Assembly (NCBI GenBank): GCA_958421325.1
Contig: CATZLO010000003.1
Span: 1-50,303, forward strand
Direction of reading: 5' to 3'
Source of the DNA: an uncultured Bacilli bacterium
GTDB taxonomy: Bacteria > Bacillota_I > Bacilli_A > RF39 > UBA660
Length of the DNA: 50,303 nucleotides
This document shows positions 7,017-46,168 of this stretch, piece by piece. How positions within the stretch are numbered: position 1 is the stretch's first letter; each line of letters starts with the position of its first letter. Under the pieces are notes generated by a model. It was given only the letters and a program-made list of their open reading frames with translations. It did no database searches and was not told the DNA's origin. The translations under genes and the position numbers were made by a program.

Positions 7017-7093
7017 GGACCCTTAGCTCAGTTGGTTAGAGCATCCGGCTCATAACCGGACGGTCGATGGTTCGAGTCCATCAGGGTCCACCA
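7017..7093 (+). tRNA. tRNA with anticodon CAT (elongator Met type, or tRNA-Ile2 read via lysidine)
   Basis: Complete cloverleaf folded by eye: acceptor ggaccct/agggtcc, anticodon stem tccgg/ccgga, loop ctCATaa, T-arm gatgg-ttcgagt-ccatc, encoded CCA. Not initiator-like, because pair 1:72 is G-C. Confidence 0.9.
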
Positions 7094-7100
7094 TTATCTT

Positions 7101-7184
7101 GCGGGTATGGCGGAATTGGCAGACGCGCTAGACTTAGGATCTAGTGTCTTAGACGTGCAGGTTCAACTCCTGTTACCCGCACCA
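7101..7184 (+). tRNA. tRNA-Leu (anticodon TAG)
   Basis: Acceptor gcgggta/tacccgc, anticodon stem ctaga/tctag with loop ctTAGga, long variable arm, T-loop ttcaact, encoded CCA. Confidence 0.9.
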
Positions 7185-26835: not shown

Positions 26836-26842
26836 AAACATA

Positions 26843-27118
26843 TCAAATCATTGATGAAAAGAAGTAACTATTTATAATCTTTTATAGAGAACTTGTGGTT
26901 GGTGAAAACAAGTAAAGTGTGAATAGTGAATAACATTTCGGAGTGCTTAAAGAAATTAAGTAGACTAAGCCGGGTGCAAACCGTTACATTTGCTAGAATC
27001 TAAAAGTGATTATAAAGGTTATAACTACATTCTTTATAATAAATTGGGTGGCACCGCGGAAGACTAGTTTCGTCCCATAGTACTATAAGTATTATGGAAC
27101 GAGACTAGTCTTTTATTA
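26843..27118 (+). promoter_or_regulatory. T-box riboswitch leader, probable Asn (AAC) specifier
   Basis: Stem I elements (ttgatgaaaagaagta, AGAGA, ggttggtgaaa). Candidate specifier AAC at 26932-26934. T-box sequence aaattgggtggcaccgcgg at 27041-27059. Terminator agactagtttcgtcccat...atggaacgagactagtc plus ttttatt. Confidence 0.88.
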
Positions 27119-43053: not shown

Positions 43054-44469
43054 TTATATTTCTTCAATCTTCATTAGGTTAGTAATTCTCTTAGTTTCTG
43101 TATTAGGGAAACCTCCAGTAATTACAATTAAGTCTCCTTCATTAAGTTCCATAAACTCTTTAGCTTTCTCTACACTTCTAGTTAATACTTCATCAGTTGT
43201 ATCTAATAGAGGTAATGTACCAGCATAAACGCCCCAGTTTAAAGCTAAACGTCTACCAGTTTTTTCATCAGTACATAAAGCAAGTATTGGAGCATCTGGT
43301 TTTAAGTTACTAATAACTTTTGCAGTTCTACCACTGATGGTTGCAGCACAAATTAATTTAGCACTTAAAGCATTTGTACTAAGTACAACATTAGAAGCGA
43401 TAGACTTAGTAATGTTATCTAAACTTTCAATATCAAAAGCGTAATCAAAACTTGCATATTTTTCAGTAGTTTCACAAATACTAGCCATAGCAGCAACTGT
43501 TTCAACTGGATGTTTTCCAATAGTAGTTTCACCACTTAACATAACAGCATCTGTTCCATCTAATACAGCATTAGCAATATCACTAGTTTCTGCTCTTTTT
43601 GGACGAATACTATTACTAGACATCATAGTCTCAAGCATTTCAGTTGCAACAATAGATATTTTCCCGAGTCTTCTACAAGTATTAATCATTTGTTTTTGAT
43701 AGATTGGAACCATTTCACTAGGTACTTCTGTACCAAGGTCGCCACGAGCTACCATAACACCATCACTAACACTTAAGATATCTTCTAAGTTTTCAATACC
43801 CAAAGCACTTTCAATCTTACAAATTATTTGTAAGTCTTCTCTACCATGTTCTTTTAAGATTTCTTTAACTTCCAAAACATCTTCTTTAGAAGATACGAAT
43901 GAAATAGCAAGGAATTCTCCACCATGTTCACAAGCATAAATAATATCTTCACGATCTGCATCACTTACATAAGGAATATCTAGTTTAATACCAGGAACGC
44001 TCATACTCTTGCGGTTCCCTAATACTCCACCATCAATAATCTTACATGTAACTCTATCTTCGTATTTGTGGATAACTTCAAGTTTCATCTTAGCATTTTC
44101 AAGTAAAATAATATCACCAACATTAAGAGAATCAATAGCACTTGGATGATTAACAGAAAATCTCTCTTTAGTACCAGTAACTGTTTCTTTAACTATATCA
44201 ATAGTTTCACCAGGAACTAGTTCAATAGAATCATTTTCCATAATTCCACATCTAAACTCTGGACCTTTAGTATCCCAAAGAATAGCAACATTCATACCAG
44301 TTCTTTTTCTAACTTCACGGACTGATGCACATGCTTTCTCTCTTTCTTCTATAGTAGCATGAGAAAAGTTAATTCTTGCTACATTCATTCCAGCTCTAAC
44401 CATTTTTTCCATAACATCAGGTTCATTACTAGCAGGACCTATACTACAAACAATTTTTGTCTTTTTCAT
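43054..44469 (-). CDS. pyk: Pyruvate kinase
   Basis: MKKTKIVCSIGPAS, NFSHA, MVARGDLG. 471 aa. Confidence 0.95.
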   Translation of the reverse strand: MKKTKIVCSIGPASNEPDVMEKMVRAGMNVARINFSHATIEEREKACASVREVRKRTGMNVAILWDTKGPEFRCGIMENDSIELVPGETIDIVKETVTGTKERFSVNHPSAIDSLNVGDIILLENAKMKLEVIHKYEDRVTCKIIDGGVLGNRKSMSVPGIKLDIPYVSDADREDIIYACEHGGEFLAISFVSSKEDVLEVKEILKEHGREDLQIICKIESALGIENLEDILSVSDGVMVARGDLGTEVPSEMVPIYQKQMINTCRRLGKISIVATEMLETMMSSNSIRPKRAETSDIANAVLDGTDAVMLSGETTIGKHPVETVAAMASICETTEKYASFDYAFDIESLDNITKSIASNVVLSTNALSAKLICAATISGRTAKVISNLKPDAPILALCTDEKTGRRLALNWGVYAGTLPLLDTTDEVLTRSVEKAKEFMELNEGDLIVITGGFPNTETKRITNLMKIEEI

Positions 44470-44502
44470 TATTTACTTCACTCCTTCTAATCAAGCTATA
44501 CA

Positions 44503-44511
44503 ATTATAGCA
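44503..44511 (-). promoter_or_regulatory. Extended -10 element (TGCTATAAT) of a probable pyk promoter
   Basis: Minus-strand TGCTATAAT lies about 35 nt upstream of the pyk SD. The -35 is poor. Confidence 0.4.
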
Positions 44512-44583
44512 TAAATTTATTAAAATTAAAAGAGTATTTTAACTGAATTACGAAATCTCGTAACTAATTTATTACATTTTATC

Positions 44584-44612
44584 TTGATATACAGAAATTA
44601 ATATGATACCAT
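44584..44612 (+). promoter_or_regulatory. Promoter of the small hydrophobic-peptide transcript
   Basis: TTGATA (44584-44589), 17-nt spacer ending in TGa, TACCAT (44607-44612). Confidence 0.45.
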
Positions 44613-44666
44613 ATTTGTAGGAACATTTAATAGTTGGGTGGATCTCCTAGAAAGGAGATTGATATT

Positions 44667-44747
44667 ATGAGTAGAAAAGATTTATTAATAGTCTCTTTAA
44701 TCATAATTATCCTTTTACTGATAAAGTTATTATTTCTAGCAATATAA
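44667..44747 (+). CDS. 26-aa hydrophobic peptide, candidate type I toxin (not in the ORF track)
   Basis: MSRKDLLIVSLIIIILLLIKLLFLAI. The SD aggag lies inside the hairpin atctcct-agaa-aggagat (44642-44659). Confidence 0.45.
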   Translation: MSRKDLLIVSLIIIILLLIKLLFLAI

Positions 44748-44785
44748 ATAAAAGCCACCTAACTCACAACTGTTGAATTAGGGGC
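44741..44785 (-). terminator. Strand-specific intrinsic terminator (minus strand)
   Basis: Minus-strand RNA gcccctaattca-acagttg-tgagttaggtggc (~12 bp, one bulge) is followed by ttttatttatatt. On the plus strand the same hairpin lacks a U-tract. Confidence 0.55.
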
Positions 44786-44878
44786 TAATCGAAAAAATAT
44801 AATTTGGTAGGTCCACTCAACATGCGATTATTAAGTGTTCCTCATTTTTTATTGTATGTAAATTTCTTTTACATATTC

Positions 44879-44907
44879 ATAGTATCATAAATATTAACTC
44901 TTGTCAA
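44879..44907 (-). promoter_or_regulatory. Near-consensus minus-strand promoter for a ~125-nt antisense RNA
   Basis: Reverse complement reads TTGACA-17 nt (ending TGa)-TACTAT. Confidence 0.55.
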
Positions 44908-44910
44908 AAA

Positions 44911-46168
44911 AACATTAACAAATTTTATAACAAATTTTATAATGAATATAATAATGATAAAAATAACACGATAATTGAAAATGCTATGAAAAAAAGGGTA
45001 TGGAAAGCTTTTGCTTAAATATTGATATTATTAATAGTGCTCCAAATGTTTTCAATATAGAATTACCAAATACTAAAATATATTATCAAGAAGATTCTTG
45101 GTTATGTTGGCTTTATGCAGGAATTAATTTTATTGAAAATAACGTTGCAACTAATCTTAACATTTTACCTACAGATGTAAATTTATCAATAAATTATCTA
45201 TCTTTTTTTGATAAACTAGAAAAATCAAATGCTTTTTATAACATAATAATTGAAAAAGATAATTTTGATTTAAAAACTGAGGTAAATAAACAATACATAG
45301 AGGATGCTTTTTTGAGGGCGGACGTTTCACATTTTTTAAAGAACTAGTTAATAAATATGGTATAGTTCCAGAAGATGTAATGCCTAAAACACTTGATAGG
45401 AAAAACTCTGAACAGCTAAGAAGACTTTATAATGAAAAACTTAAAAAAGATATGTTTAAATTACTAAAATTAAAAGAGAATAACACTTCAAAAGATGAAC
45501 TTTATCTAAGAAAAGAAGAAATGTTAAAAGAAAATTACAATCTTTTATCTAAATGCTTGGGCTCTATTCCTCTATCGTTCACATATGAATATAAAGATAA
45601 AGATGGAAAACTAATCAAGTTAGAAAATATAACTCCTATAGAGTTAAAAAATAAATATTTATCTATCAACTTAGATGATTATGTAAGTATTGTCAATGTT
45701 CCTATCTATAATACCGATTATAATAAGCTTTATAGAAAAGAATATAATGAAAATATAGATGGCAAATATGTTGAATTTATTAATAAGCCTATCGAAGTAT
45801 TAAAGGATTTAGCAATTAAGCAATTAAAAGATGGTATGCTAGTTTATTTTGCCTGTAATATTGATAAAATGAGAGATAGAAAATCAGGTATATTAGACTC
45901 TAACTTGTATAATTACAAAGATGTATTTAATATAGATTTATTAACCAAAGAAGAATCTTTAGGTAGGTTTGACATTTATTATCAACACTTAATGGTAATA
46001 ACTGGAGTTCATATTGAAAATAATAAACCTATTAGATGGAAAGCTGAAAATAGCTATGGCGATAAATTATATAAAGAAGGTTATTATATAATGAACGATA
46101 ATTTCTTTAATGATTTTGTTCTTATGGTAATAATTAATAAGAAATATTTAAGTAAGGAAGACTTATAA
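44911..46168 (+). pseudogene. pepC: Aminopeptidase C (C1B, bleomycin-hydrolase-like) gene disrupted by homopolymer frameshifts
   Basis: Three frames together give a PepC-like protein: INKFYNKFYNEYNNDKNNTIIENAMKK / (K)GMESFCLN...NVFNIEL...QEDSWLCW... / EGGRFTFFKELVNKYGIVPEDVMPKT...VITGVH...AENSYG. Frame changes occur at the A7 run 44989-44995 and the T6 run 45308-45313. No canonical start was found for the N-terminal piece. Confidence 0.8.

Follow-up and report, generated by a model that had tools for sequence, protein, structure and literature searches.

What is encoded in the short interval upstream of pyk in contig CATZLO010000003.1 of an uncultured Bacilli bacterium (assembly GCA_958421325.1), where a small hydrophobic open reading frame (ORF) on the plus strand faces a convergent promoter on the minus strand? 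We examined this interval, called the module below (extent ∼44560–44915), within a window that comprises positions 1 to 50,303 of the forward strand of the contig (50,303 nt), and compared it with copies in related genomes and metagenomes. Conserved sequence and modeled RNA folds lead us to regard the locus as probably a chromosomal, type I toxin-antitoxin (TA)-like module of a previously undescribed family. This outcome supports the proposal, made in a sequence-only reading of the window, of a type I TA system or a regulated membrane peptide: the predicted architecture is conserved with compensatory changes in seven sequence-divergent types, drawn from ∼20 related genomes and 12 metagenome contigs, and each strand carries structure that only that strand can form.

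Predicted RNAs of the two strands

The module contains the following features, with coordinates, strand, and description (SD, Shine-Dalgarno sequence; TSS, transcription start site).

44584–44612, plus: putative toxin-mRNA promoter, TTGATA-17-TGaTACCAT, from the consensus scan; predicted TSS at A44619.
44619–44850, plus: predicted toxin mRNA of ∼232 nt, with its first and last nucleotides paired (RNAfold) and a U6 3′ end.
44619–44647, plus: 5′ arm of the closing helix (H1 44619–44634, H2 44635–44647; RNAfold), its distal part overlapping the anti-SD.
44642–44659, plus: local SD-sequestering hairpin atctcct-agaa-aggagat (AUCUCCU/AGGAGAU), read in the sequence; its 3′ arm is the SD.
44667–44747, plus: 26-codon ORF MSRKDLLIVSLIIIILLLIKLLFLAI from the ORF list, a putative type I toxin whose N-terminus is basic and whose single hydrophobic stretch has transmembrane length.
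44746–44785, minus: predicted intrinsic terminator of the antisense RNA, hairpin 44754–44785 followed by the U-tract UUUUAUUU (terminator scan and folds).
44806–44842, plus: 3′ arm of the closing helix (H2 partner 44806–44820, internal loop 44821–44827, H1 partner 44828–44842; RNAfold).
44845–44850, plus: U-run (T6) directly after the 3′ arm, the probable 3′ end of the toxin mRNA; a T5–T8 run stands at the same place in every copy.
44748–44872, minus: predicted antisense (antitoxin) RNA of ∼123 nt (fold z = −4.0; alignment A3; an nhmmer profile of 25 copies spans 44872–44748).
44810–44841, minus: antisense stem-loop SL1, core CACUUAAUA-AUCGCA-UGUUGAGUG with GG..CC flanks; RNAalifold predicts an 8-bp core.
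44855–44875, no strand assigned: invariant palindrome TATGTAAA-n5-TTTACATA (n5 = tttct) over the predicted antisense TSS, within the most conserved block of alignment A1.
44907–44879, minus: putative antisense-RNA promoter, TTGACA-17-TGaTACTAT, from the consensus scan (10/12 matches plus TG); predicted TSS at G44872.

All of the elements named in the sequence-only reading were recovered. The hydrophobic 26-amino-acid (aa) ORF is in the ORF list and has a GGAG SD 8 nt upstream, the SD hairpin can be read directly from the sequence, and the T6 run lies where it had been placed. Both the plus promoter (TTGATA-17-TACCAT with TGn) and the near-consensus minus promoter agree with the sequence and are listed by the consensus promoter scan; in alignment A1, the plus promoter is conserved in its −35, its 17-nt spacing, and its extended −10, which most copies have as TGATACTAT. 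A terminator scan of 44300–45200 returned a single terminator-like site in these 900 nt, on the minus strand at 44782–44758 (shuffles, 0.0±0.2), in agreement with the claim that the hairpin at 44754–44785 has a U-tract on the minus strand only. This hairpin also sits in the 3′ untranslated region (UTR) of the plus RNA, and because both RNAs share it, they present complementary loops that could serve as a kissing site. Over 44748–44850 the two predicted RNAs overlap, matching the ∼100 nt expected at the 3′ end of the plus RNA. That both RNAs exist as discrete transcripts is a prediction of these models.

RNAfold assigned the plus RNA (44619–44852) a minimum free energy (MFE) of −65 kcal/mol (z = −5.5; 0/200 shuffles as good). 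In the window copy, the closing helix joins 44619–44647 to 44806–44842 through 29 bp, arranged as two helices around a 7-nt internal loop; of the 16-bp 5′–3′ pairing proposed in the sequence-only reading, the pairing stands and the length does not. Dinucleotide shuffling (n = 500) gave a mean of 5.6 end-to-end pairs and never 29, but 95 shuffles (19%) reached at least 12, so a 16-bp helix seen in a single sequence is a weak argument. The finding exceeds chance because the helix is conserved and covaries in relatives. A 5′–3′ helix of 12–34 bp is present in the MFE structure of all 24 distinct full-copy mRNAs (predicted lengths of 225–269 nt), and in each it begins at nucleotide 1 or 2 and stops just before the invariant U-run. 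In alignment A2, which contains the arms only (5′ 26 nt and the 3′ arm, joined via an artificial linker), 85.7% of cells pair, compared to 38–47% when the partners are slid by 1–3 columns. Both sides have changed in 15 of the 27 pairs, and the covariation score of 0.331 exceeds those of the slid versions (0.07–0.19) and is reached by 0/500 shuffles. Compensatory changes include AGGAAC/GTTCCT to AGAGAAC/GTTCTCT (a compensated insertion), AAUAG/UUAUU to AAUGG/CAUU, and AGGAACATTTAAT/ATTAAGTGTTCCT to AGGAATACCTAGT/ACTAGGTATTCCT, while the arms of one type (type G, below) have changed wholesale to AGGAAUACCUAGU/ACUAGGUAUUCCU. Read on the plus strand, the helix contains 51 G-U versus 19 A-C cells, indicating that it belongs to the plus-strand RNA.

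The folds also place the SD in paired regions. For the window copy (type A), the predicted unpaired probability of the SD is ≤0.07 in full-length, 3′UTR-blocked, and nascent folds, and the local SD hairpin is predicted to form in the latter two. The SD of types A, C, D, and F is predicted to be paired in all three states (unpaired probability ∼≤0.13), and thermodynamic prediction leaves it less masked in some type B copies (∼0.5–0.7) and in type G (∼0.25–0.3). The anti-SD sequence differs from type to type. These models suggest that the structure of the toxin mRNA holds back its translation, through SD occlusion and the long-distance helix. A toggle in which the antisense RNA would switch the anti-SD between the SD and an SD-like GAGG of the 3′ arm is not generally supported, since the SD is paired in every modeled state and types C and G keep the local hairpin in the full-length RNA. 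In the type C copies L010, L011, L018, L020, L022, L028, and L036 (L numbers label sequences of the comparison set), the 5′ arm contains an in-frame AUG (AAUGG) that would lengthen the toxin ORF to 45 aa; this upstream AUG is without an SD and lies inside the closing helix.

The minus RNA has a structure of its own. The fold of 44872–44740 has z = −4.0, and the predicted antisense is complementary to the toxin-mRNA 3′ UTR, the whole 3′ arm of the closing helix included. From the predicted start at G44872, all 27 distinct copies, toxin-less ones included, share a common fold consisting of an invariant 5-bp 5′ hairpin, an A-rich linker, SL1, a spacer, and a hairpin with a U-rich tail. RNAalifold on the minus RNAs recovered the 5′ hairpin and the 8-bp SL1 core. 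SL1 comprises 141 Watson-Crick, 51 G-U, and 0 A-C cells and hence can form on the minus strand only; read on the plus strand, those nucleotides belong to the closing helix. Two overlapping, conserved, strand-specific structures of this kind, as deduced from the sequences, are hard to explain unless both strands give functional RNAs. The pairs of the 5′ hairpin are invariant in 25 copies and hence show no covariation. The antisense terminator is absent from the RNAalifold consensus of the MAFFT alignment, because indels misalign that region, and is visible only in single-sequence folds, in which the hairpin and U-rich tail form in every copy, orphans included.

The antisense promoter is nearly invariant in all copies, toxin-less ones too, and its −35 (TTGACA) is nearer to consensus than those of the toxin promoters (TTGATA, TTGCTA), which would suit an antitoxin produced in excess. 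As far as prediction and conservation go, the module appears to encode in cis an antisense RNA that has a promoter and a terminator of its own.

The block 44845–44907, which takes in the U-run, the palindrome, and the −10, spacer, and −35 elements, hardly varies between types with cores that differ by at least 30%, and the ∼60 nt around the palindrome at 44855–44875 are far more conserved than a promoter alone needs. The palindrome could be an operator for a shared regulator (as DNA) or a 5′ stability hairpin of 5 bp (as RNA), and either a shared regulator or recombination between conserved blocks could be the cause of the invariance. At the left border of the module, ∼60 nt before the predicted toxin TSS, stands a second palindrome, TTACGAAATCTCGTAA (44548–44563; in relatives, TTACGAAAATTCGTAA).

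Copies, peptide types, and toxin-less remnants

The module occurs as 24 distinct full copies and 5–6 degenerate ones in “Candidatus Onthousia”-like gut Bacilli, represented by metagenome-assembled genomes (MAGs) and metagenome contigs. A blastn search with 44560–44915 located it at 68–95% nucleotide identity upstream of pyk in 18 species-level MAGs (the L010–L036 set), and a scan of metagenomes, baited with a pattern from the most conserved (antisense-promoter) block, added 12 contigs. All full copies retain both promoters. Their contexts differ, with murC, pyruvate:ferredoxin oxidoreductase (PFOR), fpg, an IS605-type TnpB gene, and a radical-SAM gene among the neighbors, and close relatives may have or lack the module at the same fpg-pyk site. 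Tandem copies are present in L030 (two) and L096, and L021 and L029 each contain a second, partial copy. In one assembly, 11 copies lie on 10 contigs of similar coverage, suggesting many copies per genome. The sequence-only reading had proposed a search of the genome for paralogues; blastn and tblastn searches of the 50-kb window yielded no second copy, the peptide-level matches being AT-rich noise, and copies were found in relatives instead. Fuzzy two-block matching and nhmmer found no copies in relatives with Pyk identity ≤78% (102 sequences, 755 kb), and viral contigs, plasmids, and phages gave no module matches. Many independent assemblies break in or near the module, as would those of an element that is repeated or varies between strains: L006 and L007 end at window position 44672, and the contigs of L013, L015, L016, L032, and L033 end 20–176 nt upstream of pyk.

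An ATG-initiated ORF of 22–31 aa, the only conserved one in the predicted mRNA, is kept in 24/24 distinct full copies, and a GGAG/GAGG-type SD precedes the ATG by 6–10 nt in 21/24. The peptides fall into seven types, which share the pattern M-[SNK]-[KRT]-K followed by a hydrophobic helix, with a K/R-rich N-terminus.

Type A, 26 aa: MSRKDLLIVSLIIIILLLIKLLFLAI
Type B, 30 aa: MNKKDCLISSLIIILFLQNLIFLFMILALI
Type C, 30 aa: MSKKDFLVSTLLFIIILLIVLLFVVIIILI
Type D, 31 aa: MKTKTFIIKVLKLIPLILLSLSFLVLTFKIK
Type E, no length assigned: frame-disrupted (L092, a hydrophobic frame without ATG)
Type F, 27 aa: MNKKDFLVFSLVMIIFLLLFLLFIVLI
Type G, 22 aa: for example, MSKKDFLIVILLIIVILLIIYR

The remaining two reading frames contain 5–8 and 0–2 stop codons. 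A hydrophobic ORF of fewer than 60 aa with its own translation signals is thus present on a short dedicated mRNA, as predicted, and we regard the peptide, by analogy with known systems, as a putative membrane toxin. Gene callers almost never call these ORFs; a 45-aa extended type C query found 4 unnamed proteins, and the database proteins P0001 and P0002 are 45-aa extended type C calls.

Five remnants keep the antisense promoter, SL1, and terminator and are without the toxin promoter, 5′ UTR, and start codon. These toxin-less remnants are L021b and L029b (directly after pepC), L098 (beside a TnpB gene), L099, and L101. No toxin-only remnants were seen in the synteny set or in the fuzzy-block and nhmmer scans. 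This direction of decay, with the toxin half lost and the antisense kept, is what addiction logic predicts. Together with three full copies that have lost the SD (below), it is an indirect hint that the peptide may be toxic.

Alternative explanations, comparison with known systems, and proposed mechanism

Several observations weigh against a TA module. The peptide matches no known toxin family (Fst/Ldr, TxpA, BsrG/E/H, YonT, SprA1/SprG, Hok, Ibs, ShoB, TisB, and others); three peptide types had no Pfam-A match at E up to 10, and only chance matches (E above 2) in an NCBIfam scan. An Rfam scan gave no match at gathering score, placing the antisense outside RatA, SR4-type, RNAII/par, SprA1as, Sok, Sib, IstR, and other families, and a permissive Rfam scan of 44470–45000 (E up to 10) returned only a terminator-like chance match to Ref55 (E = 1.5). 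The ratio of nonsynonymous to synonymous substitution rates (dN/dS) is unusable with too few substitutions within each type, and the case for coding therefore depends on ORF and SD retention across types; the SD is itself lost or displaced in three copies (L023, L024, and L027). The plus RNA is without a classical terminator hairpin and has only the end-to-end helix and U-run, and in type B a C interrupts the U-tract of the antisense terminator. The covariation is drawn from ∼7 lineages of one narrow clade, its counts being of sequences and not of events, and the arms alignment relies on the artificial linker. Finally, the asymmetry of the remnants is partly an ascertainment effect, because the metagenome bait was the antisense-promoter block; in the unbiased pyk-synteny set it is 2 versus 0.

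The alternative that survives best is a harmless regulated 26-aa membrane peptide, for instance a modulator of a transporter or sensor, whose synthesis is tuned by the cis-antisense and mRNA structure. All of the RNA-level evidence fits such a peptide equally well, as does the lack of a toxin-family match, and Gram-positive bacteria have many small hydrophobic proteins without toxin function, according to one review (PMC10730256). However, a harmless accessory peptide would not be expected to occur as seven types in many dispersed and tandem copies, each with a matched antisense, nor to need two or three layers of translational silencing, nor to lose the toxin side alone with the antisense intact, and no conserved partner gene adjoins the module. 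We therefore consider a non-toxic peptide unlikely.

Clearly less probable is that the minus RNA is the real gene, a member of a trans-acting family of regulatory small RNAs with a shared regulated promoter, and that the plus transcript acts as its sponge or decoy. Conservation within the module is indeed highest in the antisense promoter and in the ∼25 nt with which the RNA begins, and five copies persist without the toxin half. Yet the RNA body (SL1 and spacer) has changed along with the partner encoded in cis, whereas a shared trans target would require constancy, and ORF, SD, and ATG are retained across the full copies at the frequencies given above.

We give very little credence to the scenario that the sequence-only reading had set against itself, in which the minus promoter merely drives a long pyk leader. 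In the form considered here, the hairpin and U-tract would be an attenuator, and the small ORF and plus-strand features would be incidental. The promoter at 44907–44879 is the best consensus match upstream of pyk and points to it, but pyk has a probable promoter of its own, TGcTATAAT at 44503–44511 on the minus strand, ∼35 nt upstream of the start codon. The scan missed this promoter because its weak −35 matches at 3/6 positions only. Its extended −10 (TGyTATAAT) is kept in module-less (L031, L035, and likewise L034 and L017), insertion sequence (IS)-bearing, and intron-bearing genomes alike, indicating that pyk is independent of 44907–44879; the same 90 nt are kept in the IS strains L004 and L008, and in L020 a group II intron reverse transcriptase gene stands between the module and pyk. 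Moreover, the module adjoins other genes away from pyk, the minus RNA facing gene 3′ ends (L090, L021b, and L029b), the end-to-end helix is specific to the plus strand, and Rfam returned no riboswitch or leader family.

Equally improbable is a DNA-level element, either a recombination cassette or a mobile element resembling a miniature inverted-repeat transposable element, whose 29-bp terminal inverted repeats mimic an RNA helix. In its favor, the arms repeat each other in inverted orientation, the ∼360-bp unit is discrete and occurs in multiple copies, some of them in tandem, several assemblies break at it, and its left border has received both an IS and an intron, but the arms lie inside the promoters and not at the unit ends, the changes are compensatory and not copy-identical, the excess of G-U over A-C cells favors pairing on one strand where a DNA repeat would be symmetric, and neither a target-site duplication, a transposase, nor a match in plasmid or phage collections is associated with the module.

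By sequence comparison, neither the peptide nor the RNAs appear to belong to a described family, while the organization itself is known: in the Gram-positive families of T1TAdb, the antisense RNA lies on the 3′ side and overlaps partly (PMC8594479), which the predicted ∼100-nt overlap at 44748–44850 fits. Like bsrG/SR4 of the Bacillus subtilis SPβ prophage (PMC3834814), the module has an ORF for a small hydrophobic putative toxin, an SD that is in part sequestered, a predicted convergent antisense with its own promoter that overlaps the mRNA 3′ end by ∼100–120 nt, and an antisense terminator stem-loop facing a complementary mRNA loop, with decay and a translation block as the expected outcome. 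In SR4/bsrG, loop-loop contact via the terminator loop starts binding, and both decay control and SD sequestration are documented (PMC3834814). The two differ in that they share no sequence similarity, the module antisense stops at the stop codon and outside the ORF, the module mRNA is closed by a 5′–3′ helix to whose 3′ arm the antisense is complementary, and the peptide has 22–31 aa instead of 38 and is without a charged C-terminal tail. The txpA/RatA pair of the B. subtilis skin element (PMC3531473) has likewise 3′-overlapping convergent RNAs whose duplex is an expected RNase III substrate; TxpA, however, has 59 aa and is unrelated, the RatA Rfam family is not matched, and no end-to-end helix is described for txpA.

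With fst/RNAII (par of pAD1 from Enterococcus; Fst/Ldr superfamily), the module shares a Gram-positive host, convergent RNAs meeting at a hairpin used as terminator, an antisense that spares the ORF, and a 5′ structure that sequesters the SD. In Fst the pairing that matters involves 5′ direct repeats outside the overlap (PMC8594479), whereas the module antisense is similar, not complementary, to the mRNA 5′ arm, and the peptide has neither the Fst motif nor a match to the Pfam Fst family. SprA1/SprA1as of Staphylococcus aureus also has a 3′-overlapping antisense sparing the ORF, and again no sequence similarity; as judged from sequence, the module antisense might, like SprA1as, pair in trans with the SD through a CCUC-type stretch (the complement of a GAGG of the 3′ arm). 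Counterparts of the lock are aapA/IsoA (Helicobacter) and hok/Sok (enterobacterial plasmids), for which a 5′–3′ long-distance helix and co-transcriptional SD-sequestering hairpins are documented (PMC6733600). As predicted here, their full-length mRNA is locked by a 5′–3′ interaction and local SD hairpins can form first during transcription, and both systems, like the module, are multi-copy families with module-specific antisense RNAs. Their antisense RNAs, however, lie in the 5′ part of the mRNA and act on a 3′-processed, activated form (PMC6733600), whereas that of the module covers the 3′ UTR and the 3′ arm itself, and the module SD is masked mostly by a nearby anti-SD and not by the 3′ end.

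By analogy with bsrG/SR4, txpA/RatA and RNase III, aapA/IsoA, and hok, the module might operate as follows. On the nascent mRNA, the local anti-SD hairpin would block ribosomes; the end-to-end helix and U-run would then finish and stabilize the full mRNA, which would stay poorly translatable. The antisense, made in excess, would first contact this mRNA via the complementary loops of the shared hairpin (44754–44785), and the ensuing ∼100-bp duplex over 44748–44850 would take the 3′ arm away, opening the closing helix. Cleavage of the duplex by RNase III would prevent synthesis of the toxin. Should antisense synthesis stop, the more stable mRNA would outlast the antisense, the peptide would be made and would insert into the membrane, and growth would stop. 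That the antisense neutralizes the toxin is suggested by the ∼100 nt of perfect complementarity and the analogy with SR4 and RatA (PMC3834814; PMC3531473).

A further possibility, which we hold only tentatively and think doubtful, is that the module is an exchangeable cassette under common control, in which two near-invariant promoter blocks (the toxin promoter with its upstream palindrome, and the antisense promoter with TATGTAAA-n5-TTTACATA) bracket a fast-diverging core of ORF, helix arms, and antisense body. If so, a single trans-acting factor on the invariant palindrome could silence all antitoxin promoters together and release about ten different membrane toxins jointly, for example under stress or when phages attack. 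Toxin-antitoxin specificities would then be shuffled by recombination between the conserved blocks, as chimeric remnants such as L021b hint.

The very small size and rapid evolution of both products make type I TA systems difficult to detect, and one recent account (PMC12390103) places them so far only in Proteobacteria, Firmicutes, and Tenericutes. The probable TA family described here comes from uncultured, small-genome gut Bacilli of the “Candidatus Onthousia” group and is invisible to current annotation. It would join two designs usually described apart, the Gram-positive 3′-overlapping antisense and the hok/aapA fold-back lock, with the antisense aimed at the 3′ arm of the lock. Its seven natural variants with compensatory changes offer a ready mutational series for co-evolution of lock and antisense, as well as compact parts for RNA-based control devices.

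The fpg-pyk spacer and other features of the window

The Pyk of the window is found on many gut-metagenome contigs, and its nearest genome relatives are uncultured Bacilli/“Tenericutes” MAGs, including “Candidatus Onthousia” species (Bacilli incertae sedis). The ancestral gene order is fpg-module-pyk. The spacer between fpg and pyk is an insertion hot-spot in these genomes. The module is absent from L031, L034, and L035, and in L017 (1175–3809) it is replaced by a DUF7192 gene and a gene for a 570-aa AAA_5 ATPase, which may form a defense-like pair. In L004 (215–1615) and L008 (1–80), an IS with a 466-aa HTH_29/HTH_23 transposase lies between pyk and the module. Its junction at 44559/44560 falls inside the left-border palindrome; both strains have a Pyk identical to that of the window, and both contigs end inside the IS. 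The group II intron-type reverse transcriptase/maturase gene of L020 (2514–3818; 434 aa, YADD motif) occupies the same interval between module and pyk.

In the window and a few relatives, a split pepC has been inserted between the module and fpg. This aminopeptidase C gene (Peptidase_C1_2) is divided into ORFs at 45000–45347 (115 aa) and 45380–46168 (262 aa), which cover profile positions 36–121 and 157–419 of 438. Because the same split occurs in all relatives with the gene, it is not a sequencing error, and pepC represents a pseudogene or else a gene in two parts. A perfect tandem 12-mer (TAACAAATTTTA ×2, 44916–44939) overlaps a near-consensus plus promoter, TTAACA-17-TATAAT (44915–44943), which probably drives pepC. 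Elsewhere in the window, the plus strand carries a full-length T-box leader (141 bits) at 26842–27080 and two tRNA genes at 7017–7090 and 7101–7181.

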